Assembly: GCA_016235675.1 (NCBI GenBank)
Contig: JACRJN010000162.1
Coordinates: 1 to 42,746 of the forward strand
Length of the DNA: 42,746 bases
Direction: 5' to 3'
Source of the DNA: Candidatus Schekmanbacteria bacterium
GTDB taxonomy: Bacteria > SZUA-182
Below, piece by piece: positions 337 through 38,107 of the stretch (position 1 is the first letter of the stretch; each line of letters starts with the position of its first letter). The notes beneath the pieces were generated by a model, which was given only the letters and a program-made list of their open reading frames with translations, was not told where the DNA came from and did no database searches. The position numbers were made by a program, and so were the translations under genes.

Positions 337-648
337 CTAAATGGCTTTGATCCTTAGAGGTACGGTTTGTTCTTCTGTTTCGTCTGTTTCTTCTTCATCG
401 GTTTCATCTTCTAAAAGCGTTCCGTTTTCTCGCAGCTTATCCAATCGGTCAAGCAATTCCTTTTCCCTGGCATCGAATTCTTCTTCGGTAATCTGCTTGG
501 TTTCCAGCATCATGTAAAGCTCGTTTAGCCGGACGGTGATGTTGCCCGCCTCCTGGGCAAGCTCCTGTGCCGCCGCATCATGTATATTGCGAAAAACCCA
601 GAAAAGACTGCGGGTCGGAAATAATAGAATGTCGTCAATAAGAAACAT
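337..648 (-). CDS. gvpG: gas vesicle protein GvpG-like
   Basis: 103 aa. The N-terminus MFLIDDILLFP..LFWVF and the size resemble the GvpG family. It is the last gene of the minus-strand gvp cluster, directly downstream of a gvpF/L homolog. Confidence 0.55.
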   Translation of the reverse strand: MFLIDDILLFPTRSLFWVFRNIHDAAAQELAQEAGNITVRLNELYMMLETKQITEEEFDAREKELLDRLDKLRENGTLLEDETDEEETDETEEQTVPLRIKAI

Positions 649-666
649 TTAACCCCTCATCTAATC

Positions 667-784
667 CCAATACTGTTCACTTAACGTAGCGCAGACCTTC
701 AGGTGTCTGCTCCTTCGTTCCCGCCAAAGCTACCCCATAAGCAGGGCTAGAAGCCCTGCGCTACGTCTTAAGTGAACGGTATTG
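667..784. repeat. MITE/REP-like palindromic element, family A (caatactgttcacttaacgtagcgcag...ctgcgctacgtcttaagtgaacggtattg)
   Basis: ~118 bp element with ~27 bp terminal inverted repeats. A near-identical copy lies at 17886-18001. Confidence 0.85.
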
Positions 785-787
785 CAT

Positions 788-1534
788 CTAAACCTTAAGG
801 TCTATTTCAACAAAGTTGTGCGGCGCCCAGGGGCCGTTATAGTCAAAGGCAAAGTTATCGTCAAACAACCCGGCGGCCTTAAAAACGCCGGCCTCAAAAT
901 CACTCTGGGCATTTTTGGCAATCAAACAGGCCAGATTCATTATCTGATGTTCGTTATGCGGCGGATTGCGTTTAATTTCAAAACAGAGAGGATTCAATAT
1001 CTCTTCCACCATGCCGGTAAAGAATAGCCTGTCTTCTTCAAGAATACGGGCAAACATCTGTCCCAATTCGATTTTCTCTCCCTGGGAAGGTTCGCGGTTA
1101 ACCCCAAAAACCCGGTCGCGTTCAGAACGCATTTCAGGATGAGTCTGCACAAAATAATCAAAAAGGTTAGGGGCGTCCAAACTAACGCGCAACCCCATTT
1201 CCACTTTGTTTTCAACCCGTTTAAGCTGAGCCAGGAAAACCCCCTGGTTCAAAGAAAGAATTTTCAAAATCCCGTCAGAGCTGTCTGCAATGACGCCAAA
1301 AGACATGGGCAAAACAGTGCCTTGCGCCATTAAACGTTTGAGGACTTCCTGATGGGCGGCGATATTGCGCCGTTCCGGACGTATCTTCTGGTTGGGAACA
1401 TCGCTCACCAGGGCGGCCATTTTCCCGTCGGAAACGCTGTAAACATCGCTGCCGTTAATACCAAAAGCGCCATATGTGCGCCCTTTAGCTTCGGCTACAA
1501 TACAATACAAGTATCTTCCTGCATTTTTTCCCAT
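788..1534 (-). CDS. gvpF: gas vesicle protein GvpF/GvpL family
   Basis: 248 aa. N-terminal YLYCIV motif and C-terminal GPWAPHNF motif are typical of GvpF/L. It is a paralog of the ORFs at 5614-6309 and 6315-7112. Confidence 0.8.
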   Translation of the reverse strand: MGKNAGRYLYCIVAEAKGRTYGAFGINGSDVYSVSDGKMAALVSDVPNQKIRPERRNIAAHQEVLKRLMAQGTVLPMSFGVIADSSDGILKILSLNQGVFLAQLKRVENKVEMGLRVSLDAPNLFDYFVQTHPEMRSERDRVFGVNREPSQGEKIELGQMFARILEEDRLFFTGMVEEILNPLCFEIKRNPPHNEHQIMNLACLIAKNAQSDFEAGVFKAAGLFDDNFAFDYNGPWAPHNFVEIDLKV

Positions 1535-1627
1535 GTGAATTACATCCTGACTGGATGACCTAAAATGTTTGGTGCAGCCATGTCCTGTATCATAACGTTG
1601 CTGACCGATTTTAGCTGACCTGGTTAG

Positions 1628-1825
1628 TTATAAAGTATGCTCAAAGGCTTCTTCAACCGATAGGCGTGGCATAATCTTTACGAAGTTGACCGATTTTAAG
1701 TGTCCCTGCTCGGTACAGATCTCCAGGAGTGCACTGCAAGCAAAGCACTTGACCTGACCTTTATAATCCTCATAAAGATCATCCAGGTCTACATTGTGTC
1801 CGCAAGAAAGACAGTTGATTTTCAT
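1628..1825 (-). CDS. small zinc-ribbon protein (CxxC...CxxC), hypothetical
   Basis: 65 aa with two CxxC pairs (CLSCGHN, CFAC). A good RBS (aaggagaataacag) precedes the ATG. Embedded in the gvp cluster. Confidence 0.4.
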   Translation of the reverse strand: MKINCLSCGHNVDLDDLYEDYKGQVKCFACSALLEICTEQGHLKSVNFVKIMPRLSVEEAFEHTL

Positions 1826-1878
1826 CTGTTATTCTCCTTTTCTTTTCCGGGGCGGCTCACCCCCTATGTGCATATGCC

Positions 1879-1988
1879 CTAACTTAAACGTAGCGCAGGG
1901 CTTTAGCCCTGCCAGCAGCCGCAACGTTTGTGCCCAATCCGGGGCAGACCTAAAGGTCTGCGCTACAGATAAATGCCTTAAGTTAGCG
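1879..1988. repeat. palindromic element, family A' (ctaacttaaacgtagcgcagggctttagccctgc...cagacctaaaggtctgcgctac...gccttaagttagcg)
   Basis: Copies at 19028-19140 and a partial copy at 32431-32514. Confidence 0.85.
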
Positions 1989-1998
1989 CCTATGCCCC

Positions 1999-2367
1999 CT
2001 ATGCGATACCCTGCCCCTTGCAGGTAGTACAGTAAAATATCCCCGCTTCACCCGTTCCTTTACAGGCAGGACAAGTGCCGGCCTCCTGGGACACGGACAC
2101 TACCCCCACTCCTTTGCAGGCCAGACAGCTTAAATCGCCGCCTTCACGCCCTGTACCGAAACACTTCCGGCAGGTAACCACCGGTGGGTTGACCTTGATT
2201 TGGCCACTGGCGCCGCAGATGGGACAGCGGCTCATGTTCCCGTATTTCGGGTCGACTCCAGTGCCCTTGTAGTAAGCGCAGGTTACTGAATCTACAAAGC
2301 GCTTGTCCCGTATGCGTCTTCCCTTTAGTTTACCTGATTTGGCCAGTACTTCCTGGGCATATTCCAT
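1999..2367 (-). CDS. DnaJ CR-type zinc-finger protein (CxxCxGxG repeats), no J domain
   Basis: 122 aa with five full CxxCxGxG repeats plus one degenerate repeat. Paralog of 3977-4360. Located inside the gas-vesicle cluster. Confidence 0.6.
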   Translation of the reverse strand: MEYAQEVLAKSGKLKGRRIRDKRFVDSVTCAYYKGTGVDPKYGNMSRCPICGASGQIKVNPPVVTCRKCFGTGREGGDLSCLACKGVGVVSVSQEAGTCPACKGTGEAGIFYCTTCKGQGIA

Positions 2368-2370
2368 CGG

Positions 2371-2589
2371 TTACCTCGCTTTCGTCGGTTGGCTGCACTC
2401 CAGGTGTTCACCCCATTGCCGGGCAAGCCGAATGCGCTGCTGCTCCCGGTTGGCCAGTCTGGCTTCCTCCCGATACATTCTCATACCATCCCAATGGGAG
2501 GTGGCTATACCGGTAGCTGTCCTGCACGAACGAAAGCTTTCGATGTTTCGGCTGCTGCGACAGTGAGCCATACTCTTCAAAGTAAGCAT
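2371..2589 (-). CDS. possible small Arg-rich ORF filling the gap between two gvp-cluster genes
   Basis: Sits in a 240 bp gap inside an otherwise tightly packed operon. Start placed at the internal Met (MLTLK). No recognisable motif. Confidence 0.15.
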   Translation of the reverse strand: MLTLKSMAHCRSSRNIESFRSCRTATGIATSHWDGMRMYREEARLANREQQRIRLARQWGEHLECSQPTKAR

Positions 2590-2611
2590 TGGTGTTTTCC
2601 TTAAAATGATA

Positions 2612-2938
2612 TTAGTACTTAATCTTGATGCCACCCGTATTTAAGCGAGGCTGAGGCATTATGACCGGAACATCGGATGGATTAGCGTCTTTTTGCTTGG
2701 CTAACACCTTCAATAGTCTGGCCTTTTGAACCTCGATTTCTTGAAAGCGGGCATCTATATTCTTCACTCGCTGTAGGGCGCTTTCTTTTTCCTTGCCCCG
2801 CCGAACCTTCTCCAGTTCCAGGTAGCTAAGCTTAAGATGTGTTCTATAGGGAGTGGCTTCCTGATCGACCCTGCCAGAATGAGTACGGATGTCCTGTAGT
2901 CCCCGTATATTTTGTATGTTAGTTCTGGGGATAGCCAT
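2612..2938 (-). CDS. hypothetical coiled-coil protein in gvp cluster
   Basis: 108 aa, basic with a charged helical stretch. Begins 12 nt downstream of the gvpN stop on the same strand. No family recognised. Confidence 0.4.
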   Translation of the reverse strand: MAIPRTNIQNIRGLQDIRTHSGRVDQEATPYRTHLKLSYLELEKVRRGKEKESALQRVKNIDARFQEIEVQKARLLKVLAKQKDANPSDVPVIMPQPRLNTGGIKIKY

Positions 2939-2950
2939 AGCTTGCTCCGG

Positions 2951-3973
2951 TTATATGCAGGCTGGTTGCGCTGCTTGGTTTGTTTTTTGTGGCTTGGGTG
3001 ATTTGCCGATGTTAGCGACATTTGGCTTACAACTTTGCTGGATTATCTCGTTTATCTTTTGCAACATTAACGACTTACCATCGTGGGTAACCTTGGCTGT
3101 GTTCATGCTGAGAACATCATGGCAGACCCGCTGGAAGATGGGATCGTTCCGCTGGGCATGTCCCCCCAGGTGGGTCAGAATCCTGCCGATGGCAATACAG
3201 GCGCGGATGGTTGGATGGTGGTTGTTCACCCCGAAGTCGCGCAGTTTACTTACCACATCTACGACAACCTCCGCCTCTGACCTTGGAAGGCCCGATTTGG
3301 CCATAGTAATCTCAATCCCCGTTTCCTGATCATAGTGGCCAAGCTGGATGGTAATAAGCCGGTCCATCAAGGCATCCTGGGTTTTATGCACCCCGGCATA
3401 TTCCTCCGGATTGGAGGTGAAAATAGCCCTGAACTTCGGATGAACTTGCAAATAACCCTCTCCCAGGCGGCGCAGCTTCGGCAAATTGAGAATCTTCTCC
3501 TCCAGCACACTCAACAACACATTATTGGCTTCCGGCCGCGAACGGGTAAACTCGTCATAGATAACTGTGTCCCCATTCTGACAGGCCATGGTAAGCCGAT
3601 TGTCCACCCACAGACTCTTCATTTCCTCTTCGGTTTTCAGTACCGAGTGGATGAAATTATCGATGAGTTTATGCTTGCGATAACCGGCATCGCGACCCAC
3701 CAGATCGGAACTGCCGAACTCATCATCCCCATGGATGAGGGTTACCGGCCGGCCGCGTTTGGCGGCCACATGAAAGGCCAGAGTAGTTTTTCCCGTGCCT
3801 GCCGGTCCGGCAAAGTGTACCGGATAGCCCACCTCGAGATAAGCCAGGGCACGCTCTGTTATCTCCTGGATATAAGGCGTGTTGACAAACTCCTCGCCGG
3901 CCTCGGGGGTAATGTTGTCAGCGTTGGGCTGGATTCTTTCCATGGACGTATTCTTTAAGTTTTGGCTATTCAT
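2951..3973 (-). CDS. gvpN: gas vesicle protein GvpN (AAA+ MoxR-like ATPase)
   Basis: Walker A motif GPAGTGKTT and overall GvpN/CbbQ-like sequence. Its ATG lies 3 nt after the stop of the upstream zinc-finger gene. Has a C-terminal extension of roughly 60 aa. Confidence 0.85.
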   Translation of the reverse strand: MNSQNLKNTSMERIQPNADNITPEAGEEFVNTPYIQEITERALAYLEVGYPVHFAGPAGTGKTTLAFHVAAKRGRPVTLIHGDDEFGSSDLVGRDAGYRKHKLIDNFIHSVLKTEEEMKSLWVDNRLTMACQNGDTVIYDEFTRSRPEANNVLLSVLEEKILNLPKLRRLGEGYLQVHPKFRAIFTSNPEEYAGVHKTQDALMDRLITIQLGHYDQETGIEITMAKSGLPRSEAEVVVDVVSKLRDFGVNNHHPTIRACIAIGRILTHLGGHAQRNDPIFQRVCHDVLSMNTAKVTHDGKSLMLQKINEIIQQSCKPNVANIGKSPKPQKTNQAAQPACI

Positions 3974-3976
3974 TGA

Positions 3977-4360
3977 TTATTTACCCCTTTCAGATTCATT
4001 GTTACCGGTAATCCTTCCCCGACCATGACATTTAAGACAAGCCATAGCCATAGCCGAGCTATCGTCCCCCGTCCCCCGGCACTCCGGACAGATAACAGTT
4101 GGTTCGGGCAGCGCGGACACAACACCCTTACCATTGCAAACGTTACAGGTAAAGGTCTTAATGGCTCCCGTGCCGCGGCAGTGCGCGCAGGCCTCATAAG
4201 GCACCTGTACCTGCACTAAGCCCTTGCCATTGCAAACGCAACAGTTGGAAAGCGATGACATAACATCGAAGGGGTCTTTCCCCTTGCCTTTACAAAAAGC
4301 ACAACTAACCTGTAACATCTTTGGCTTCTTTTTTCTTTTTCCGATTAGCGCCTCAGGCAT
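3977..4360 (-). CDS. DnaJ CR-type zinc-finger protein (6x CxxCxGxG), no J domain
   Basis: 127 aa with six CxxCxGxG motifs (CAFCKGKG, CVCNGKG, CAHCRGTG, CNVCNGKG, CPECRGTG, CLKCHGRG), enough for three predicted Zn centres. Lys-rich N-terminus. Translationally coupled to gvpN. Confidence 0.6.
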   Translation of the reverse strand: MPEALIGKRKKKPKMLQVSCAFCKGKGKDPFDVMSSLSNCCVCNGKGLVQVQVPYEACAHCRGTGAIKTFTCNVCNGKGVVSALPEPTVICPECRGTGDDSSAMAMACLKCHGRGRITGNNESERGK

Positions 4361-4408
4361 ATCCTATCCCCTTTTGCCGGTATTATAAAATCGCTACCAA
4401 ACGTTAAA

Positions 4409-4456
4409 GGAGTAGAGACTTTAGTCCCGTAAAAACGAGGCTAAAGCCTCTACTCC
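4409..4456 (-). terminator. long imperfect hairpin between the gvpA module and the zf-gvpN module; possible intra-cluster attenuator
   Basis: ggagtagagactttagtcccg...cgaggctaaagcctctactcc forms a stem of about 18 of 21 bp, flanked by T-rich sequence on both strands. Confidence 0.3.
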
Positions 4457-4527
4457 ATTCTTATTCTTTGATTGCGGAATGGTATTATACTTAATGAGTT
4501 CATAATTTGCGATTTATTATTCAGCAA

Positions 4528-4778
4528 AATTTCAACCTGTATGTTTGCCGTAAAAGTAAAAACCCCGGACTCCATTATTCGTGCCGCTTTTGTGCGGGCG
4601 TTGCCCGCATCACAGGCAGGATGCCTGTGCTACCGGTACGGGCTGCGCCCGCTATTATTTGGTAGCACAGGCATCCTGCCTGTGTTTGGGTTGAGGAACG
4701 AAACTCAAGATTCCCTCGTTCGGTTTTATGTCTCTGTTCCAATTTTTGAAATCACAATTTATGAGCTTTAAAAGTATA
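4528..4778. repeat. left copy of a ~250 bp inverted repeat flanking the gvpA-gvpF-gvpL-hsp20 module
   Basis: Near-identical to the reverse complement of 8140-8405. Contains ggtagcacaggcatcctgcctgtg hairpins. The ORF-track peptides 4472-4771(+) and 8149-8376(-) share the C-terminus ...RNETQDSLVRFYVSVPIFEITIYEL, which is the signature of the inverted repeat. Confidence 0.85.
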
Positions 4779-4780
4779 TG

Positions 4781-5011
4781 TCAAGCAGCTTTGCTTTTAC
4801 CAAAGAAGGCCTGGTAACCACCGGCCATATCAGCACGGACATCAGCCAACATCCCGGAGACATTTTTGCTTCTCTCGGTATTGGCGTTTTGGAAATCGGC
4901 TCGCATCTTAGCCACATTATGCTGTATATCGGCAACAAATGCCTTACGCCCTTCATGTCCAGCTATGATTTCATCGTGTAATCGGTTCATATCATCAGTT
5001 AGATGTCCCAT
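4781..5011 (-). CDS. small helical protein with two ~17-aa repeats, directly downstream of gvpA
   Basis: 76 aa. AFVADIQHNVAKMRADF and GMLADVRADMAGGYQAF align as internal repeats. The position just after gvpA is analogous to gvpC. Confidence 0.4.
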   Translation of the reverse strand: MGHLTDDMNRLHDEIIAGHEGRKAFVADIQHNVAKMRADFQNANTERSKNVSGMLADVRADMAGGYQAFFGKSKAA

Positions 5012-5124
5012 TTTTCTGCTCCTTATTTTCTTAGCCCCCCAAAGAAAGAGTTACCCGGATTCCCTGCCGGGAAAGGTCATTTCTAACCTCTCCCGGCATT
5101 AAGAATCTATAAAATTTGGTTCCG

Positions 5125-5343
5125 TTACGCAGGCATTGCAGCGCTTGCGGTCAAACCGATAGCTTCGGCATACTTCAGATAGGTTTCAACCGAGGCGATA
5201 ACCACTCTGGCTTCAATGGAGAGTAATTCGATTCCCACCAACGAAACTTTCACCCAGGCATCAATTACGATACCTTTGTCCAAGATACGATCAATAACTT
5301 CAGCCAAGCTCGAAGAATCTGTCGACTTTTGAATCTTAGCCAT
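5125..5343 (-). CDS. gvpA: gas vesicle structural protein GvpA
   Basis: 72 aa. [55 protein letters not shown] is near-identical to canonical GvpA. A gggagg RBS is present. Confidence 0.95.
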
Positions 5344-5613
5344 GATGAATACACCTCCCTTTTTTAGGAATTAGGAATTATCGTCAGCGCTGACTTTTTG
5401 TTTTAACATGGTCTGTTTGCCATGTCATTGCAATGCCCATATGTAATGCCAGTATTATGCCATTTTTAGCATGTTTTAGTCATGATGATTTTCAGTGTGT
5501 TTATAAACAACTAGTTAGCTAAATAATTGTAACTTTAATATCCCCCACCAATCAATGTCTGCCACTTGGGATAATATGTAATAATTCCCACACATATATG
5601 GTAATGGATACCC

Positions 5614-6309
5614 CTATATCTGGACAAAATTGTAGGGGGGCCAGGGGCCGCTTAAAAGCAGTTCTCCTGATGCTTGTAGTTTGATTTGGCGGGCAGCGTG
5701 ACAAAACCGCTCAACAGAATTTCCGGGCACCAGAAAATAAAGGGAAATTATCCGTTTATCTTCTGACACACAAAACTCTTGTTTGCTATGCACAAAAAAT
5801 TCGCTCAATTTATGGCAAACCGTTTTCACCAGCAGGTCCCGTTCATGGGCCAGCGGCTCTTCCTGTTGATAGTGTTGCCTCTTGGCAGCCAGGTATGCGT
5901 GTCCGGAACTATAGGTTGTCTCCGAACGTGGATTTTCCTTCTTCACACGGGGGGCATTAGGCAGAAGGAGGCGTATTCCCATTTCCTCGCAACCTGTTAG
6001 TTTTTGGATCAGGGATTTGAATTGTTCGGAATGCGCTTCCAGGAAACGAACAACCTGGGCCTCTTGCGCGAACAATGAACCGTAACGCATCGGTATTACC
6101 GCCCGGTTGTTATGAAAGTAGGTAACCACTTGATTGTAAGCGCAAATCCTTGGTATATCGGGGATCGCTTCCTGAGAATTAATTTGGGATACAGCCGCGC
6201 TTAAACCGCCATGGGCTATATAGAAGACAGGTTCTCCTCCCACCCCCAAAACAGCAGCTTTCCCTGGTTCATCCAGAGTGGAGAAAACACAATACAATAG
6301 ATAATTCAT
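5614..6309 (-). CDS. gvpF: gas vesicle protein GvpF/GvpL family
   Basis: 231 aa. LLYCVF at the N-terminus and the C-terminal SGPWPPYNF motif. Confidence 0.8.
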   Translation of the reverse strand: MNYLLYCVFSTLDEPGKAAVLGVGGEPVFYIAHGGLSAAVSQINSQEAIPDIPRICAYNQVVTYFHNNRAVIPMRYGSLFAQEAQVVRFLEAHSEQFKSLIQKLTGCEEMGIRLLLPNAPRVKKENPRSETTYSSGHAYLAAKRQHYQQEEPLAHERDLLVKTVCHKLSEFFVHSKQEFCVSEDKRIISLYFLVPGNSVERFCHAARQIKLQASGELLLSGPWPPYNFVQI

Positions 6310-6314
6310 ATATT

Positions 6315-7112
6315 TTAAACAGGCATAAGGGAAGCGGAAAAGCTATATGGAGGCCATGGCCCGGAATATTCCAGCGCTATACCCCATTGATTATACTCGG
6401 TATTTAGTTTTTTTATGCACTCACAAAAGTCCATTACCCGGTCTTTCGGAACTAAAAATGCCCAATTCAGCGCCATATCCGTATCTTTGCCGGTTACTTC
6501 GCGGGAAAGCACTTTGCGCTCACAAAAATCCGCCGCATACCCGGACAGATCGGCAGCCAGTTTTTTAGCGCGCTCTTTTAGCCAATGGTTTAATTCCGCA
6601 TCTAAACTGTTTTTTATGCGCTGCTCCTCAAAATAGCGCTTCCCTGGCGCTAATGCAGCCAACTTTTCCCTGTTCTGACTAACCAACAAGGCAAAGAGTT
6701 TTTCTTTGGCCGCCGTTTTATCCAGAAAACCCTTTAGCGACCATTCCTCTTTATCCCGCATTTTTTCCAGAAAGGATAAAATTGCGGGATAGCGTTCTTC
6801 CAATAGTCGGTATAATTTTTCCCGCGCAGAAAAAATAGTGCCAAAGCGCGCCGGGAACAGGGGGGAATGAGCCATTATCTGTTCAAGCACCAATTCATGA
6901 CGGCAAGCCCGGGGAGCCACCCAGTTTAAATCCTGTAATTTAGCCTGTGCCTCCTCGCTGCAAAAATCTTCCAGGCAGACCGTACCTGCCACAGCAACAA
7001 TGTCTTTAACTCTATGTAATATCAGAGGCATTTGCTCTTCCAATCCCGTGCCTTCAAGGTCGGGCAGCAGATCGGAATAGGCAATGCCAAATAAATAGAT
7101 GCCGTTTTGCAT
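6315..7112 (-). CDS. gvpL: gas vesicle protein GvpL/GvpF family
   Basis: C-terminal YSGPWPPYSF motif. The start is moved to the Met of MQNGIYLFGIA because the longer ORF's N-terminus (through 7151) runs into a palindromic repeat at 7120-7207. Confidence 0.75.
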   Translation of the reverse strand: MQNGIYLFGIAYSDLLPDLEGTGLEEQMPLILHRVKDIVAVAGTVCLEDFCSEEAQAKLQDLNWVAPRACRHELVLEQIMAHSPLFPARFGTIFSAREKLYRLLEERYPAILSFLEKMRDKEEWSLKGFLDKTAAKEKLFALLVSQNREKLAALAPGKRYFEEQRIKNSLDAELNHWLKERAKKLAADLSGYAADFCERKVLSREVTGKDTDMALNWAFLVPKDRVMDFCECIKKLNTEYNQWGIALEYSGPWPPYSFSASLMPV

Positions 7113-7119
7113 ATTTTTT

Positions 7120-7207
7120 GATGTTTCGGTGTGTTTCACGCCGAAACCCATAAGGGGGTAACGTTACCCCTTGTTAGTTTCGGCGTGAGGACACGCCGAA
7201 ACATCAG
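7120..7207. repeat. family C triple hairpin (tttcgg[cg]gtg..cac[cg]ccgaaac / gggtaacgttaccc)
   Basis: Copies at 8406-8450, 8508-8529, 9580-9606, 32372-32430 and 32519-32576. Confidence 0.8.
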
Positions 7208-7265
7208 AAGCGTAGTTTCAAGCTTTTTACTCATCCCTCCTCCTTCCGACTTCATCCTGGTGTTT

Positions 7266-7772
7266 TTACTTGTTACACTTAATCTTCGCAATCCCGTTTT
7301 TGCAGGAGACACTTATTTTATCCTCTGTGAAATTCCCCGGCAGGAGTATTTCCTTGCGATACTTTACCTCGCTGTTTTCAGCGTAAATAGTTAGAATATC
7401 ATCCTTAACGCTAAGCCGGATATTTTTGGTCTGTATTCCGGGCATCTCAGCCACCACCAAGACATGATCCTCTTCTTCAAAAACATCCACAATCGGTTCG
7501 CGCACCTCACGAACGATTGATTCACCGCTCGTTTTATCCTTGCGAATATTTCCGAAAGGCTCAACTTTAATCCCGTTTCCCTGCAAGCCGGTTTTAATCG
7601 AAAAACCGAAAACACCCTTAATCGGATTGCACTTTTTATCCTCCAAATTAATTTCACTAACCCTGGAAAAGGCTTCCCCCTTTTCTGCCAGATCGCCAAG
7701 CGCTTCCACCAAATCCGTAAGCCCTTTTAAAATCCCTCCGGCTGGATTTTGCTGTTTTTTCTTCTTAGGCAT
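7266..7772 (-). CDS. Hsp20/alpha-crystallin family protein (gas-vesicle-associated small heat shock protein)
   Basis: The alpha-crystallin domain signature VFEEEDHVLVVAEMPG...LTIYAENS. A gaggagg RBS is present. It is the first gene of the minus-strand cluster. Confidence 0.75.
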   Translation of the reverse strand: MPKKKKQQNPAGGILKGLTDLVEALGDLAEKGEAFSRVSEINLEDKKCNPIKGVFGFSIKTGLQGNGIKVEPFGNIRKDKTSGESIVREVREPIVDVFEEEDHVLVVAEMPGIQTKNIRLSVKDDILTIYAENSEVKYRKEILLPGNFTEDKISVSCKNGIAKIKCNK

Positions 7773-8139
7773 TATCGTTACCTCCTCATCCCTGAGCTAA
7801 CTTATTGACAATCTCCATAATAAGAGTTCTGGAATATTTTTTACACATAGAGGGGTTGGTATGCTTTTTTTGTGCCGCTATAATAAGAAGCTTAACCGGT
7901 AGTAATCCATTTTTCAACCTAAAAGTTACTTTAGTGCCATATAGTGTACTGCACAGGGCAAAAAGACTGGTCGGGAATTTCGGCAATTATTTTTACCGTT
8001 GATGCGGCAGGGGTGGGGAATCCCATTAAACTCGACTAGTACAGCGTCTATTTAGTTTTGACTGGTTGCGCTTATTTTGCATTCCAAATAAAATGGACGA
8101 CGTACTAGTACACGATTTTATAAATAACTAAGATTATTT

Positions 8140-8405
8140 TTTATACTTTTAAAGCTCATAAATTGTGATTTCAAAAATTGGAACAGAGACATAAAAACGA
8201 ACGAGGGAATCCTGGGTTTCGTTCCTCAACCCAAACACAGGCAGGATGCCTGTGCTACCAAGAAAAGACACAGGCAGGACGCCTGTGCTACCAAATAAAA
8301 GCGGGCGCAGCCCGTACCGGTAGCACAGGCATCCTGCCTGTGATGCGGGCAACGCCCGCACAAAAGCGGCACACATAATGGAATCCGGGGGTTTTTACTT
8401 TCCTG
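8140..8405. repeat. right copy of the ~250 bp inverted repeat (with a 33 bp internal duplication)
   Basis: Reverse complement of 4528-4778. Nested inside a larger element bounded by 23 bp terminal inverted repeats at 8108-8133 and 8660-8685. Confidence 0.85.
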
Positions 8406-8529
8406 GATGTTTCGGGTGTGTTCCACACCGAAACCCTAAAGGGCGGCGTGCCGATTGGCAAGGCTCAGGCTGTGGTTGAGATAAGTTCGTTCCCCTTGCC
8501 TGTTTCGGCTTGGAACAAGCCGAAACATC
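8406..8529. repeat. family C hairpins (two copies)
   Basis: gatgtttcgggtgtgttccacaccgaaac and cctgtttcggcttggaacaagccgaaacatc. Confidence 0.75.
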
Positions 8530-8566
8530 AATTTTATCAATCATTGCGTAAGGTGAGTTTTTAAGT

Positions 8567-8632
8567 GTCATTGCGAGCGGAACGAAGCAATCTAAAGTTC
8601 GTGCGTCTGAGATTGCTTCGGCGAGAAGGCTG
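8567..8632. repeat. family D element (gtcattgcgag...gaagcaatct...agattgcttcg)
   Basis: Copies at 27837-27908, 32288-32369 and a diverged copy at 42259-42350. Confidence 0.75.
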
Positions 8633-8686
8633 CTGAGCTATGACAGAATAAACTCAGTTAGTTATAAAATCGTGTACTAGTGTGTA

Positions 8687-8726
8687 AGGTGGACTGATTT
8701 GTCAAGACCAGTCCACCTTATTTTCT
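8687..8726 (+). terminator. orphan rho-independent-terminator-like hairpin
   Basis: aggtggactg-(12 nt loop)-cagtccacct followed by tattttctctc. No plus-strand gene lies upstream of it. Confidence 0.3.
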
Positions 8727-8841
8727 CTCAAGTTTAAATTTTATCATTTTCGTCTTAGAACATTTCTATTTTGGTAAAAGAGGACATTATTACTTTGACA
8801 TGACGGAAATGATTTTTAATTTTAGCTTGTCGTTTTTTGTA

Positions 8842-8870
8842 TTGACAAAAGTAAAACGACATCTTATAAT
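8842..8870 (+). promoter_or_regulatory. consensus sigma70 promoter (TTGACA-17-TATAAT) upstream of nuoE
   Basis: ttgaca at 8842-8847 and tataat at 8865-8870 with a 17 nt spacer, about 240 nt upstream of the nuoE ATG (9113). Confidence 0.55.
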
Positions 8871-8898
8871 CTAAATATCTTTCTAATATGTTGTATAT

Positions 8899-8922
8899 AA
8901 ACAAGTTATAGTTAACTTGTTT
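8899..8922 (+). promoter_or_regulatory. 10-4-10 perfect palindrome (aaacaagtta tagt taacttgttt), candidate operator in the nuoE leader
   Basis: Perfect inverted arms read directly from the sequence, about 30-50 nt downstream of the predicted -10. Confidence 0.4.
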
Positions 8923-9112
8923 GCTTTCCGGTTCCTGGTGGATATTCCGTTAGTCTCTGTTTTTAAACTCTGTTCTAATTTATATTCAATTTCAAAAATA
9001 CCGCTCTCCGTCGGAGAAACTGTATCGCAACACAGCCTCAGAGCGGACATATCATAAACTATTCAAAACTCAAAACTCAAGAACCTGAAACCCTGACCGT
9101 GGTTCAAATGTT

Positions 9113-9577
9113 ATGAATATTCCCCAACCTTTATGGCAGGAAATCGAACAAATAATTGTGTCTTATCCGCAGCCGCAAGGAGCGGTGCTGCCGGCGTTAC
9201 ACAAAATTCAGGAGCGGATGGGCTACCTGGCTGAGGAGGCTTTAGCTCAGATAGCCGGACATCTGCGGATACCGCAAGTGGATTTGTTCGAAATCGCCAC
9301 CTTTTATACCCTGCTTTACACCAGACCGCACGGTGACAACATAATACTGGTTTGTAACAATATCTCCTGTTATATCCTGGATTCGGAAACTATTCTTTCG
9401 ACACTTGAAGACGAACTAAAGATTAAAGCGGGCAATACCACCGCAGACAACAAGTTCACCCTCCAGGCCGTTTCCTGTCTGGGGGCTTGCGACGGAGGGC
9501 CGGTGATGTTGATAAACGACCAACTTTACCCCCATTTGACCGGTGACAAAATCAGACGGATTTTAAAGGAATATTAA
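9113..9577 (+). CDS. nuoE: NADH dehydrogenase subunit E-like (NuoE/HoxE/FdsG, 2Fe-2S thioredoxin-like)
   Basis: Cys motif C..ISC...SCLGACDGGP typical of NuoE. Confidence 0.85.
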   Translation: MNIPQPLWQEIEQIIVSYPQPQGAVLPALHKIQERMGYLAEEALAQIAGHLRIPQVDLFEIATFYTLLYTRPHGDNIILVCNNISCYILDSETILSTLEDELKIKAGNTTADNKFTLQAVSCLGACDGGPVMLINDQLYPHLTGDKIRRILKEY

Positions 9578-9579
9578 GG

Positions 9580-9606
9580 TGTTTCGGTTTGGGGACAAGC
9601 CGAAAC
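9580..9606. repeat. family C hairpin inserted in the nuoE-nuoF intergenic region
   Basis: tgtttcggtttggggacaagccgaaaca. Confidence 0.75.
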
Positions 9607-9652
9607 AAAAACAAAATTACCCATTCCCCATTCCCCATTATCAATTTAATTC

Positions 9653-10960
9653 GTGGAGCATACCTTGCCGCAAACACGGGTCTTACTAAAAAATATCGGT
9701 ACCCCCGATTCCGAAACCCTGGACGGTTATCTGAAGAACGGGGGATACCAGGCGCTAAAAAAAGCCGTGAGTGATTTGACGCCTGAGGAAATAGTGGATT
9801 CGGTAAAACGCTCCGGATTGCGGGGACGGGGCGGAGCCGGATTTCCCGCCGGGATGAAATGGCAGTTCTGTGCCTCAGACCAAGCCTGCCCCAAATACGT
9901 AATCTGTAACGCCGACGAGGGAGAGCCGGGCACCTTCAAAGATCGCATCCTGCTGGAAGAAGACCCGCACGCGGTTCTGGAAGGCATGGCTTTGGCCGGT
10001 TACGCCATCGGGGCCAATCAGGGCTATGTTTACATCCGCGGCGAATATTATAAGGGGGCGCTTTCCCTGGAAAAGGCCGTCACTGAGGCCAATCAGCACC
10101 ATTACCTGGGGCAAAAAATATACGGAACTGATTTTGATTTCAATATCCAGGTTTTCCGGGGGGCGGGGGCTTACATCTGCGGTGAAGAAACGGCGCTTTT
10201 AGACTCTCTGGAAGGCAAGGCGGGACGCTCGCGGATTAAACCGCCTTACCCGGTAAATCAGGGTTTATGGGGCAAACCGACTTGCGTCAACAACGTCGAG
10301 ACCTTAACCAACATTCCCTGGGTTGTCAATAAGGGTGTCGATTGGTATCGCAAGTTCGGGACGGAAGAAAGCCCCGGCACTAAAATCTACTCCTTAAGCG
10401 GTCACGTCAACCACCCCGGCAACTACGAACTGCCGATGGGAGCTACCTTACGGGAGCTTATTTACGAATACGGCGGCGGTATCCGCCAGGGCCGACGGTT
10501 AAAAGCGGTTATGCCCGGAGGGGCTTCCAGCGCCTGTCTGACCGAAAAATCGCTGGATGTCAAAATGGATTTCCATAGCTTAGCGGCTGCCGGTTCCATG
10601 CTGGGGTCGGGAGCGGTCATCGTGATGGATGAAAATACCTGTATGGTGGGCGCGGCACATAATGTAGCCGCTTTTTTCGAGCACGAATCCTGCGGGCGCT
10701 GCACCCCCTGCCGTGAAGGCACCCATTGGATCAAACGGATTCTGGAACGGGTTAAGAATTTTGAGGCTAAAAGCGTAGCGGAAATAGATTTAATCGCCGA
10801 CCTGGGACAGAATATGAGGCTGGGAGCTTTTTGTCCCCTCGGCATGGGAGCACCCAGCGCGGCATTGAGTATAATTCAGCATTTCCGGGATGAGTTTGAA
10901 ACGCACGTTAAGGAAAAGCGGTGTCCGGTAAATATCCCTGCCGTAGTGCCAGGGCTTTAG
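9653..10960 (+). CDS. nuoF: NADH dehydrogenase subunit F-like (NuoF/HoxF/FdsB, FMN/NAD-binding, 4Fe-4S)
   Basis: GLRGRGGAGFPAGMKW motif, Gly-rich NADH-binding site, and C-terminal ESCGRCTPCREG 4Fe-4S motif. Confidence 0.9.
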   Translation: MEHTLPQTRVLLKNIGTPDSETLDGYLKNGGYQALKKAVSDLTPEEIVDSVKRSGLRGRGGAGFPAGMKWQFCASDQACPKYVICNADEGEPGTFKDRILLEEDPHAVLEGMALAGYAIGANQGYVYIRGEYYKGALSLEKAVTEANQHHYLGQKIYGTDFDFNIQVFRGAGAYICGEETALLDSLEGKAGRSRIKPPYPVNQGLWGKPTCVNNVETLTNIPWVVNKGVDWYRKFGTEESPGTKIYSLSGHVNHPGNYELPMGATLRELIYEYGGGIRQGRRLKAVMPGGASSACLTEKSLDVKMDFHSLAAAGSMLGSGAVIVMDENTCMVGAAHNVAAFFEHESCGRCTPCREGTHWIKRILERVKNFEAKSVAEIDLIADLGQNMRLGAFCPLGMGAPSAALSIIQHFRDEFETHVKEKRCPVNIPAVVPGL

Positions 10961-10995
10961 CCCTGGAAATTCAGCCCTAAAGGGCTGAGGCTACG
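10941..10995. repeat. family B palindromic element (ccgtagtgccagggctttagccctggaaattcagccctaaagggctg..ctacg)
   Basis: Copy at 34551-34607. Sits between nuoF and the nuoG-like gene. Confidence 0.8.
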
Positions 10996-11031
10996 TTTTT
11001 ATATTGCCGATTCCCCAACAATGAGGAATAA

Positions 11032-13473
11032 ATGGTCAACTTAGTAATTGACGGCATCAGAGCGGAGGCCCAGGAGCACGAAACAATTTTGGGTGTGGCA
11101 AAGCGCCTGGGGATCACGGTACCCACCTTATGCTACCACGCCAAACTGGGAGCGTTCGGCGCCTGCCGCATCTGCCTGGTGGAAGTGCAGCCCGGCAACC
11201 GCTTGGTGGCCTCCTGTATCACCAAAGTTCTCAATAATATGGTGGTCAAGAGCGACAGCCGTATGGCAGCCGATGCCCGCAAGACTAATCTGGAATTGCT
11301 GTTAGCACGCCATCCTCCCGATTGTCTGGTGTGCGAAAAAGGCGGGGAATGCGAATTGCAGAACGTGGCCTTTCATATCGGCAGCCGGGGGCTTTCCGCC
11401 GAAGGGAAAAACCGGATTGTGGACATTTTCGGGGTTCAACCCCTGGACGTTTCCATCAACGATACCCGCACCATTATCGAACGTGATTTGAATAAGTGCA
11501 TTTTGTGCAAACGCTGTATCCGGGTTTGTCACGAGGTGCAGGGCGTGGGAGCGATAAACTTTGCCAAACGCGGCTACAAAATGGAAATGGGGGCGTTTTT
11601 CGGCAGAGCGCTGGATTGCGAATTCTGTGGGCAATGCGTGGATATTTGTCCGGTCGGCGCCCTGGTTAATAAGGTCAATAAGTACAAGGCGCGCGCCTGG
11701 CAATTGACGCGCACCAAAAGCGTCTGCTCCTATTGCGGCTGCGGCTGCACCTTGTTTTTGAACGATAACAACGGTTTTTTGACCAAAATCAGCTCAAACA
11801 ATGCGGTCGGCCTCAATCAGGGGAATTTATGCGCCCGCGGACGGTATGGCTTTGACTTCGTAACCAGCCCGGAGCGCCTGAAGGCTCCCTTAATCAGGGA
11901 AAACGGAAAATTCCGGGAGACCAGTTGGGAAGAAGCCCTGAATCTGACCGCCGCAAAGCTAAAGGAAATTAAACAGAAATCCGGCGCAGGCAGCATTGCC
12001 GCCCTGGGTTCAACCCGCTGTACCAACGAAGAGAATTATTTGTTGCAAAAGCTGATGCGCGCGGCCATCGGTACCCCGCATCTGGACAGTTCCGCCGGTT
12101 TGGAACATGCTCCGGCCATGAAATCCCTGGCCGCGGCTTTCGGACTTCCGGCCGCCACTAATTCCATCGCCGACCTTCATCAGGCTGAAACTATTCTGGT
12201 GATGGAGGCCAACATTACGGTAAATCACCCCATTATCGGTCTGAAAATCAAAGCCGCGGTGCGCAAAGGCACATCCCGCCTGATAGTAATTGAAACCGGC
12301 CCGACCAAACTGGGCGCTTTCGCCGCTTTAACCTTACAGCCTCAAGCCGGTACGGAAGTAGCCCTGTTAAATGGCATCGCCCATGTTTTGCTGGAGGAAG
12401 GACTTATCGATCAAAACTTTGTCGCCGCTAAAACGGAAGGATTCGAAAAGCTGAAAACACTTTTAAGGGATTATTCCCCGCATGACGCGGAAAAAATCAG
12501 CGGCGTTCCCGCGGAAAAGATCAAGGCTGCCGCCCAATTATACGGACAAGCCAAACCCGCCGCGATCTTGTTCGGAGCGCAGTTAAGCCAGCAGGCACAA
12601 GGAGCGGATGCGGTAAGCGCTTTGATTAATATGGCGCTGCTGTGCGGCAATATCGGGGTGGCCGGAGGAGGCGTAAATCCGCTGCGAACGCAAAACAATG
12701 TTCAGGGCAGTGGCGATATGGGAATGCTGCCGGATTATTTGCCCGGTTATCAACCGGTAAGCAACCAAAACGCCCGCCAGGTTCTTGAGAATTTGTGGGA
12801 AGCCAAATTACCGGAAAGCGCAGGGTGGAATATGGAGGGCATCTTTTCCGCAGTAGAAAAAGGTTCCATCAGAGCGATGTACATCATGGGAGAAAATCCG
12901 GTAATGGCCGCGCCTTATCCGGATAAAATCAGGGCGGATTTGGGCAAACTGGAATTTTTGGTCGTACAGGATCTTTTCCTGAGCGAAACCGCTCAGTTGG
13001 CGGACGTGGTGCTGCCCGGAGTCAGCTTTGCGGAAAAGGACGGGACTTTTACCAATACCGAGCGCAGGATTCAGAGAATTCGTCAGTCGATTGCACCGCT
13101 TGAGGGATGTATGCCGGACTGGCAGATTCTGATCGAGATCGGCAAGCGCTTGGGATATAATATGCCGTCTTATCATTCACCCTCGCAGATAATGGATGAA
13201 ATCGCTAAGATCAATCCGTATTATGCGGGAATAAACTATCCCCGCCTGGAAAATGAGGGTTTGCAATGGCCGTGTAAGGCCGTTGACGATCCCGGCGCAC
13301 CAGTGTTGTACCGCGAAGGTTTCCCGGCCGGCAAAGCCAGGCTGCTGGCGGTTAAGTATCGGGCGGCCTCAGTAGAGGAAAAAGCCTATCCTTATCTGGT
13401 AACCGCCGGTAAATATCATTCCGGAACTATGAGCCGCTTCTCCCGCGCGCTCCTTGAAATCAGGATGGCTTGA
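11032..13473 (+). CDS. NuoG-like / formate dehydrogenase alpha-like molybdopterin oxidoreductase (N-terminal 2Fe-2S, 4Fe-4S clusters, MopB domain)
   Basis: N-terminal 2Fe-2S (CYHAKLGAFGACRIC), His-Cys cluster (HPPDCLVCEKGGEC), two 4Fe-4S motifs (CILCKRCIRVC, CEFCGQCVDICP) and the MopB motif CSYCGCGC. No in-frame stop that would suggest selenocysteine. Confidence 0.8.
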   Translation: MVNLVIDGIRAEAQEHETILGVAKRLGITVPTLCYHAKLGAFGACRICLVEVQPGNRLVASCITKVLNNMVVKSDSRMAADARKTNLELLLARHPPDCLVCEKGGECELQNVAFHIGSRGLSAEGKNRIVDIFGVQPLDVSINDTRTIIERDLNKCILCKRCIRVCHEVQGVGAINFAKRGYKMEMGAFFGRALDCEFCGQCVDICPVGALVNKVNKYKARAWQLTRTKSVCSYCGCGCTLFLNDNNGFLTKISSNNAVGLNQGNLCARGRYGFDFVTSPERLKAPLIRENGKFRETSWEEALNLTAAKLKEIKQKSGAGSIAALGSTRCTNEENYLLQKLMRAAIGTPHLDSSAGLEHAPAMKSLAAAFGLPAATNSIADLHQAETILVMEANITVNHPIIGLKIKAAVRKGTSRLIVIETGPTKLGAFAALTLQPQAGTEVALLNGIAHVLLEEGLIDQNFVAAKTEGFEKLKTLLRDYSPHDAEKISGVPAEKIKAAAQLYGQAKPAAILFGAQLSQQAQGADAVSALINMALLCGNIGVAGGGVNPLRTQNNVQGSGDMGMLPDYLPGYQPVSNQNARQVLENLWEAKLPESAGWNMEGIFSAVEKGSIRAMYIMGENPVMAAPYPDKIRADLGKLEFLVVQDLFLSETAQLADVVLPGVSFAEKDGTFTNTERRIQRIRQSIAPLEGCMPDWQILIEIGKRLGYNMPSYHSPSQIMDEIAKINPYYAGINYPRLENEGLQWPCKAVDDPGAPVLYREGFPAGKARLLAVKYRAASVEEKAYPYLVTAGKYHSGTMSRFSRALLEIRMA

Positions 13474-37831: not shown

Positions 37832-38107
37832 GGTAGCACAGGCATCTTGCCTGTGATGTAGGCAACGCCCACACAAAAACGGCACAATTCCTGGAAGTTG
37901 TCAGTTAATATCGTTTTCTAGTTGTCATTCCCAAATGGTGTTATCGGGAATCTGGTTTAACTGCTTGAAAAACCATATCCGTCCCCGAAGTCTTTATCGG
38001 GGATAAAAGCATTCGGGGATGACAGTGTGTCTTATCAACTAGAAAACGATATAAATCGAAAGCTTCCGTGCTATGCCACAACACACAGGCAGGATGCCTG
38101 TGCTACC
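37832..38107. repeat. fragment of the gvp-flanking inverted-repeat family, interrupted by a family F MITE (37912-38048, terminal repeats cgttttctagttg / caactagaaaacg)
   Basis: tggtagcacaggcatcttgcctgtgatgtaggcaacgcccacacaaaaacggcac matches the inverted-repeat interior. cacaggcaggatgcctgtgctacc reappears at 38084-38107. Confidence 0.7.

Follow-up and report, generated by a model that had tools for sequence, protein, structure and literature searches.

The question raised by the present locus is whether a gas-vesicle (gvp) gene cluster without visible gvpJ, gvpK or gvpM genes reflects an unusual way of assembling gas vesicles or only the accessible part of an ordinary cluster. The locus is situated on the minus strand at positions 337-7772 of a contig from a metagenome-assembled genome (MAG) of Candidatus Schekmanbacteria. 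The window analyzed here is this entire contig of 42,746 bp, and the record holds nothing beyond either end. A first-pass annotation had recognized gvpA, gvpN, three gvpF/L genes, gvpG and an Hsp20 gene, and had suggested that the cluster might be partial or that its products might follow a divergent assembly pathway. From the comparison with related loci, an ordinary gvp cluster has most likely been cut by the end of the contig, and its gvpJ and gvpK genes reside elsewhere in the genome. The contig carries most of a cluster of the proteobacterial two-operon type known from Serratia and Desulfomonile tiedjei, a new member of this type in a candidate phylum.

Position of gvpJ and gvpK in related clusters

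The cluster comprises 13 protein-coding genes, all with uninterrupted frames, which follow each other in the order hsp20, gvpL, gvpF2, gvpA, a GvpC-like gene (rep76), a zinc-finger gene (ZnF1), gvpN, a small gene of hypothetical function (hyp108), orf72, a second zinc-finger gene (ZnF2), a zinc-ribbon gene (zr65), gvpF1 and gvpG (Table 1). Matches to Pfam and NCBIfam models agree with the names and minus-strand places given to the gvp genes and hsp20 in the first-pass annotation, whose gene list was correct for the genes it named and overlooked one, the conserved 72-residue gene orf72. The core set of the GvpA shell protein, three GvpF/L proteins and one GvpG is present. The GvpN translation contains a Walker A (GPAGTGKT) and a Walker B (VIYDEF) motif, and scores above the cut-off of its equivalog hidden Markov model (HMM). 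The gvp open reading frames (ORFs) have normal lengths compared with those of relatives, and ten of the 13 genes are 50-93% identical to their counterparts in the related locus L001; gvpF2 reaches 41%, and ZnF2 is not found in that locus.

The lack of gvpJ, gvpK and gvpM, first noted for about 7.5 kb, holds for all 42.7 kb. With GvpA of the window as tblastn query, gvpA itself was the sole GvpA-type locus in the 42,746 bases, and two J-like proteins of relatives matched only gvpA itself on the entire contig. Two GvpK proteins of relatives gave no tblastn match anywhere on the contig at E-values up to 1. Pfam searches of the cluster ORFs, likewise at E-values up to 1, returned no match to PF05121 or GvpO and none to PF00741 besides gvpA. 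The suspicion that the hypothetical ORFs might be divergent GvpJ, GvpK or GvpO proteins was not borne out either, as Pfam and NCBIfam at permissive E-values revealed no hidden member of these families among them. The absence of J and K is established for the contig only, which stops where relatives place these genes.

Related loci were collected in a genome scan with one genome per species and GvpN as query, yielding 80 loci with 64-78% identity from MAGs labelled Desulfomonile, Desulfobaccales, Acidobacteriota, Verrucomicrobiota, Phycisphaerae and others, and in a metagenome scan with GvpF1 as query, yielding 57 further loci with at most 62% identity. A search of 5.8 billion proteins with GvpF1 returned no relative above 66% identity. 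The genome and metagenome loci, about 140 from several phyla, have a common gene order. Its first part consists of a sigma-54 NtrC-type activator, hsp20, a CDC48-type AAA ATPase, gvpL and gvpF, often with a PAS histidine kinase and a response regulator between gvpF and gvpA. The middle part comprises gvpA, the gene for a 33-residue-repeat protein, ZnF1, gvpN, hyp108, optionally orf72, ZnF2 and the zinc ribbon, then gvpF and gvpG. In the tail, gvpK is flanked by two GvpJ-like genes, and a gene for a two-domain ArsA-like ATPase may precede this trio. The tail genes of relatives matched the Pfam models GvpK (115 bits) and Gas_vesicle (60-64 bits), and HMM matches were also obtained for CDC48 (TIGR01243, 887 bits), ArsA and the NtrC-type activator.

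The synteny comparison gave an answer in two parts. Neither J nor K lies inside the hsp20-gvpG stretch in any of the related loci, which thus share the gap that had attracted attention in the window, yet of the 77 loci that continue for 3 kb or more past gvpG, 76 carry both a J-like gene and gvpK in that part. Because relatives keep these genes after gvpG and never between hsp20 and gvpG, a cluster of this type is normally free of them in the stretch that corresponds to 337-7772.

In the window, the contig terminates 336 nucleotides past gvpG, at the coordinate 1 side, and since the window is the complete contig, the record does not extend to the left of coordinate 1. The designation as a partial cluster is therefore correct for the contig, though in a trivial sense. 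The first J-like gene starts at most 336 nucleotides from the gvpG stop codon in only 52 of 99 loci, the distance in the others being up to 2.6 kb, and no ORF in 1-336 crosses the left contig end. The segment 1-336 downstream of gvpG is made up of short GC-rich hairpin repeats, and the right contig end likewise lies in repeat DNA. An assembly break at hairpin repeats is the simplest reading of the contig end and probably the correct one. The J-K-J module is most likely located on another contig of the same genome. An ArsA-like gene probably lies ahead of it, to judge from the two closest relatives: for two of the closest GvpF1 relatives from the protein search (65% and 63% identity), independent gene calls give the series GvpG, ArsA, Gas_vesicle, GvpK and Gas_vesicle. 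An ArsA-like gene downstream of gvpG was found in 42 loci altogether.

Some observations weigh against a cluster that is merely cut. The J and K genes of the genome itself were not found in the collections searched, from which the source genome is absent and in which the nearest proteins are only 66% (GvpF1) and 78% (GvpN) identical. Exact-sequence look-ups of GvpN, GvpF1, PdxJ and GvpG found no contig, and only that of Ffh led to one, a 1.5-kb Logan contig of SRR12113407. Moreover, the cluster is atypical in lacking the CDC48-type ATPase, the sigma-54 activator, the kinase and the response regulator, so that further loss is conceivable, and one relative, L051, is a truncated remnant without J and K.

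Table 1. Features of the gvp cluster and associated elements in the window.
Feature	Position	Strand	Evidence and remarks
gvpG	337-648	-	PF05120, 57.4 bits, E 1.7e-15; last gene before contig end
gvpF1 (GvpF/L family)	788-1534	-	PF06386, 212 bits
zr65, 65-residue Cys4 zinc ribbon	1628-1825	-	only weak Pfam matches; C5, C8, C27 and C30 invariant in 23 homologues
ZnF2, stand-alone DnaJ-type CXXCXGXG protein	1999-2367	-	PF00684, 35.5 bits (cut-off 32.7)
orf72, conserved 72-residue gene	2371-2589	-	tblastn with L139:8972-9190, 52% identity, E 1e-16
hyp108	2612-2938	-	directly after gvpN; conserved partner gene, no Pfam or NCBIfam family
gvpN, AAA+ ATPase	2951-3973	-	TIGR02640, 347 bits (cut-off 266.8); PF07728, 62.7 bits
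ZnF1, stand-alone DnaJ-type zinc finger	3977-4360	-	PF00684, 40 bits (cut-off 32.7); anti-TRAP PF15777, 40 bits
Hairpin-rich element, copy A	4558-4778		about 220 nucleotides; 95-98% identical to inverted copy B
rep76, short GvpC-like protein, 76 residues	4781-5011	-	position after gvpA; repeats in homologues
gvpA	5125-5343	-	PF00741, 63 bits; NF006874, 137 bits (cut-off 100)
Sigma-54-type -24/-12 promoter-like site TGGCATAATACTGGCA	5447-5462	-	starts 119 nucleotides upstream of gvpA ATG; consensus match
gvpF2 (GvpF/L family)	5614-6309	-	PF06386, 153 bits
gvpL-like (GvpF/L family)	6315-7151	-	PF06386, 170 bits
hsp20	7266-7772	-	first cluster gene on contig; PF00011, 31.5 bits; NF041800, 120.6 bits (under cut-off 140)
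Hairpin-rich element, copy B, inverted	8142-8395		one extra 33-nucleotide hairpin unit; lies beyond hsp20

Loss, replacement or misassembly

The absence of ATPase and regulators could also belong to a partial or decaying cluster, in a lineage that has lost gvpJ, gvpK, the CDC48-type ATPase and the regulators, and in which the genes left would either be a relict that yields no vesicles or rely on partners dispersed in the genome. The CDC48-type ATPase and the sigma-54 activator are near-universal in relatives: a 700-residue CDC48-type ATPase is encoded between hsp20 and gvpL in 56 of 57 cases and left as a fragment in the 57th, whereas the corresponding spacer in the window measures 114 nucleotides, and the activator precedes hsp20 in all 40 relatives (40/40) and is not found in the window. 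In its place the window has a non-coding, repeat-rich stretch of 1.3 kb upstream of hsp20, beyond which housekeeping genes are encoded on the opposite strand. A histidine kinase occupies the gvpF2-gvpA position in 41 of 66 related loci. In the 42.7 kb, tblastn located no gene for the CDC48-type ATPase, sigma-54 activator, histidine kinase, response regulator or ArsA, and no remnants of the ATPase and the activator, the spacers 7152-7265 and 7773-9112 included. Repeat elements within the cluster point in the same direction, as does the existence of L051 (Acidobacteriaceae MAG contig CAVYDK010000014.1). This sole relative with more than 3 kb after gvpG yet without J and K comprises gvpN, hyp108, gvpF1, gvpG and a truncated ArsA-like gene, has no gvpA upstream, and looks like a remnant cluster. 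However, the 13 cluster frames of the window are intact and mostly well conserved relative to L001, gvpA retains a promoter-like site as in relatives, the hairpin repeats fill intergenic DNA along the whole contig and not the cluster alone, and the absence of J and K coincides exactly with the contig end, where relatives carry them. Decay is hence considered unlikely.

The promoter-like site of the sigma-54 type was assessed by comparison with relatives. A comparable site occurs upstream of gvpA in 44 of 93 relatives, mostly 76-131 nucleotides from the ATG, and in only one of the 93 reverse-complement controls. When the window was scanned with a strict sigma-54 pattern, the matches were no more numerous than expected by chance, and only the positional comparison with relatives is informative. 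Judged from these sequences, transcription of gvpA is probably sigma-54 dependent, and the NtrC-type activator that it would require is probably encoded in another part of the genome.

The accessory genes had led to the proposal that they occupy operonic positions instead of J and K, possibly as part of a divergent assembly pathway. In such a pathway, the role of GvpJ/M and GvpK would be taken over by the zinc-finger, zinc-ribbon, hyp108 and orf72 proteins. The missing J and K genes agree with this proposal, and no Pfam or NCBIfam family covers hyp108, orf72 or the GvpC-like protein; the statement that the accessory genes are not known as Gvp components is thus largely valid. However, the same accessory genes recur in relatives that carry J-like and gvpK genes downstream of gvpG besides them, hence they do not substitute for J and K. 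Furthermore, no accessory ORF showed a PF00741, PF05121 or GvpO match in the searches described above. hyp108 was considered as a divergent GvpK and rejected, because the alignment of its family with the GvpK profile by hhalign gave a probability of 0.1%, and it was rejected as a GvpA-like fold, because AlphaFold predicts a single long helix. Replacement of J and K by the accessory proteins is scarcely credible on this evidence. In a broader sense, a genome without GvpJ/M and GvpK might form vesicles or a related shell from GvpA, three GvpF/L proteins, GvpG, GvpN and the small proteins hyp108, orf72, two DnaJ-type fingers with three zinc sites each and a zinc ribbon, which is very improbable. 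If true, such a genome would represent a minimal J/K-independent route, which would also operate without the CDC48-type ATPase or local Gvr regulators.

The inverted repeat of 250 bp, which the first-pass annotation placed inside the cluster, needs revision. A repeated element does exist at this site, with a length of about 220 nucleotides (copy A), and its partner is the inverted copy B beyond hsp20. Copy A contains perfect hairpin arms of 24 nucleotides and sits where relatives have the GvpC-like gene and ZnF1 adjacent to each other; a partial third copy is present at 37832-37895. The inverted copies bracket a 3.4-kb segment with the GvpC-like gene, gvpA, gvpF2, gvpL and hsp20, and could permit its inversion or perhaps attenuation past gvpA-gvpC. 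A mis-join or collapse at these copies during assembly might also have dropped the CDC48-type ATPase and the regulator genes. The high identity of copies flanking the segment and the position of both contig ends within repeats are compatible with such an artefact. However, the expected site of the CDC48-type gene, between hsp20 and gvpL, lies within the bracketed segment and coincides with neither copy of the repeat, and gene order and strand agree with the relatives throughout, making the artefact very improbable.

Truncation of an ordinary cluster by the contig end is therefore kept as the preferred reading. From the knowledge on the protein families, the following division of labor can be proposed. 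GvpA would build the ribbed shell, which the GvpC-like protein with its 33-residue repeats might stiffen from outside. Three GvpF/L proteins and GvpG, together with the off-contig GvpJ-like proteins and GvpK, would be responsible for nucleation and assembly. Growth from bicones to cylinders may be driven by the GvpN ATPase with hyp108 as small coiled-coil partner. Finally, Hsp20 and the stand-alone DnaJ-type zinc fingers might serve as ATP-independent holdases for the very hydrophobic shell proteins.

Accessory genes and known cluster types

The small accessory genes are recurrent constituents of the cluster type. hyp108 directly follows gvpN in 79 of the 80 genome loci. The GvpC-like gene comes directly after gvpA, within the gvpA-gvpN interval, in 79 of 82 relatives, and a zinc-finger gene takes the ZnF1 position between the GvpC-like gene and gvpN in 54 of these 82. 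Among 99 relatives, the interval between hyp108 and gvpF1 harbors a zinc ribbon in 71, orf72 in 50 and a zinc-finger gene at the ZnF2 position in 14. A profile of hyp108 collected 1613 homologues, none of them with a Pfam domain or an informative name; the protein is predicted by AlphaFold to form one long helix (residues 29-83) and has conserved N- and C-terminal motifs. orf72 matches no Pfam family.

The two zinc fingers and the zinc ribbon named in the first-pass annotation were confirmed. ZnF1 displays eleven invariant and one nearly invariant cysteine in six CXXC(XGXG) motifs among 23 homologues, hence three zinc sites are predicted, compared with two in DnaJ. All six motifs are complete in ZnF1, and one of six is degenerate in ZnF2, which is 65% identical to L139:9194-9559. 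The 127-residue ORF of ZnF1 differs from the public gene call, and its true start may be the Met at 4318. zr65 is regarded as a Cys4 zinc ribbon, because its four cysteines are invariant in 23 homologues. Stand-alone PF00684 proteins without a J domain are exemplified by anti-TRAP and plant BSD2; similarly, ZnF1 and ZnF2 consist almost entirely of CXXCXGXG motifs and match both models. DnaJ (Hsp40) combines a J domain with four motifs, whereas ZnF1 and ZnF2 have six motifs and no J domain, and therefore do not qualify as DnaJ. In contrast to anti-TRAP and BSD2, the ZnF genes are fixed within the gvp operon. A literature search for DnaJ-type zinc-finger proteins in gvp clusters found no paper.

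A repeat period of 33 residues is a hallmark of GvpC. The small repeat protein of the first-pass annotation indeed belongs to a repeat family and can be specified as a short member with 33-residue repeats: in the long homologues 33 residues is the commonest best period (40 cases), with 66 residues in five more. With 76 residues, rep76 is too short to show the period itself. Neither rep76 nor its family matches PF01304 or any NCBIfam model, and the protein has no relative in the PDB. In the close relative L141 (L141:5942-7551, JGI contig Ga0315314_1000990), the GvpC-like gene is separated from gvpN by an insertion with genes for an actin-like protein of the Volactin family (PF25216, 284 bits) and for a TPR protein.

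Among characterized systems, the two-operon gvp cluster of Serratia sp. ATCC 39006 is built on the same backbone of hsp20, two GvpF/L genes, gvpA, a repeat-protein gene, gvpN, a small-protein gene, gvpF and gvpG, and the three GvpF/L paralogues are found in the window, too. The genes A1, A2, A3, K, F1-F3 and G are essential in Serratia, as are the three Gvr regulators, and mutation of gvpN or gvpV halts development at the bicone stage (PMC4982088). An inverted operon order has been reported for Desulfomonile tiedjei and Psychromonas (PMC4982088), and the hsp20-first order of D. tiedjei matches that of the window. The order gvpA, gvpC, gvpN, gvpV, gvpF1 and gvpG of Serratia and D. tiedjei is likewise found here, with putative equivalents of gvpC, assigned by position and repeats, and of gvpV, assigned by position. 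By analogy of position, and for hyp108 also by its small size, hyp108 may correspond to GvpV, hsp20 to GvpH and the CDC48-type gene of relatives to GvpZ. Regulators of the gvrA, gvrB and gvrC type and the tail of J-like, K and J-like genes are present at matching positions in the relatives but not in the window. Compared with Serratia, the window is devoid of the sigma-54 activator, the CDC48-type ATPase, the histidine kinase and the response regulator, and the contig stops before the A2-K-A3 part, whereas two DnaJ-type zinc-finger proteins, the zinc ribbon and orf72 are added to the Serratia list.

The likeness to cyanobacterial gvp clusters includes gvpA followed by a 33-residue-repeat protein and gvpN, and GvpF, GvpG, GvpJ and GvpK in the gene set. 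However, the repeat protein of the window is unmatched by the Pfam model Gas_vesicle_C and comprises only 76 residues, and the gene order is different. A 2010 study (PMC2963123) reported both ArsA homologues and Hsp20 as encoded in gvp clusters, with an ArsA homologue being associated with the gvp cluster of Anabaena/Nostoc. Cyanobacterial clusters lack hsp20 and have single L/F copies (PMC2963123), in contrast to hsp20 and three GvpF/L genes in the window. With the p-vac cluster of Halobacterium salinarum (gvpACNO/gvpDEFGHIJKLM), the window shares GvpA, GvpN, GvpF/L and GvpG, and its relatives also the GvpJ/M type and GvpK. In contrast to H. salinarum, no Pfam match to the regulators GvpD/E, to GvpO or to GvpI was obtained for the window ORFs tested, and organization and accessory genes differ.

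The cluster type is widespread: besides Schekmanbacteria, in which it is now seen, its carriers include MAGs labelled Thermodesulfobacteriota, Acidobacteriota, Verrucomicrobiota, Phycisphaerae and other phyla. Its recurrent but unstudied small genes, i.e., hyp108, the two DnaJ-type zinc fingers, the zinc ribbon and orf72, are candidate assembly chaperones that could matter for heterologous expression. Moreover, a natural variant without a CDC48-type ATPase beside hsp20 hints that this ATPase is dispensable or encoded elsewhere.

Surroundings of the cluster

Families of GC-rich hairpin repeats resembling repetitive extragenic palindromic (REP) elements pack the intergenic DNA along the contig, the gvp operon included, for example GCAGGGCTTTAGCCCTGC, CACAGGCAGGATGCCTGTG and CGTGGCTAAAGCCACG. 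Spacers filled in this way include 1-336, 649-787, 1826-1998, 7152-7265, 7773-9112 and many others. Adjoining the cluster on the plus strand at 9113-13473 are NuoE-like, NuoF-like and NuoG/formate-dehydrogenase-like genes, followed by two genes for cyclic nucleotide-binding proteins. The remainder of the contig carries housekeeping genes such as dapF, pdxJ, argH, rnhB, trmD and ffh, and because of these neighbors the cluster is regarded as chromosomal. The public record already annotates GvpA, GvpN, GvpG and GvpF/L. Within the NCBI accessions MBI5789438-MBI5789447 are the proteins GvpG, GvpF1, zr65, ZnF2, hyp108, GvpN, rep76 and GvpA of this contig, the lowest being MBI5789438.1, named GvpG by NCBI. 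Ffh of the window is 100% identical to MBI5789477.1 (Candidatus Schekmanbacteria).

The related loci L139 and L140 lie on the JGI contig Ga0315280_10002711 of 28,349 bp. The first 8,210 nucleotides of this contig equal its last 8,210 nucleotides with 99.96% identity, and because its ends match over this length, the contig is either a circular element of about 20.1 kb or tandemly duplicated. Little else is encoded on it than a complete gvp cluster with its regulators and an Avd-like gene (PF05635/PF22296), and it could be a mobile or plasmid-borne gas-vesicle module.

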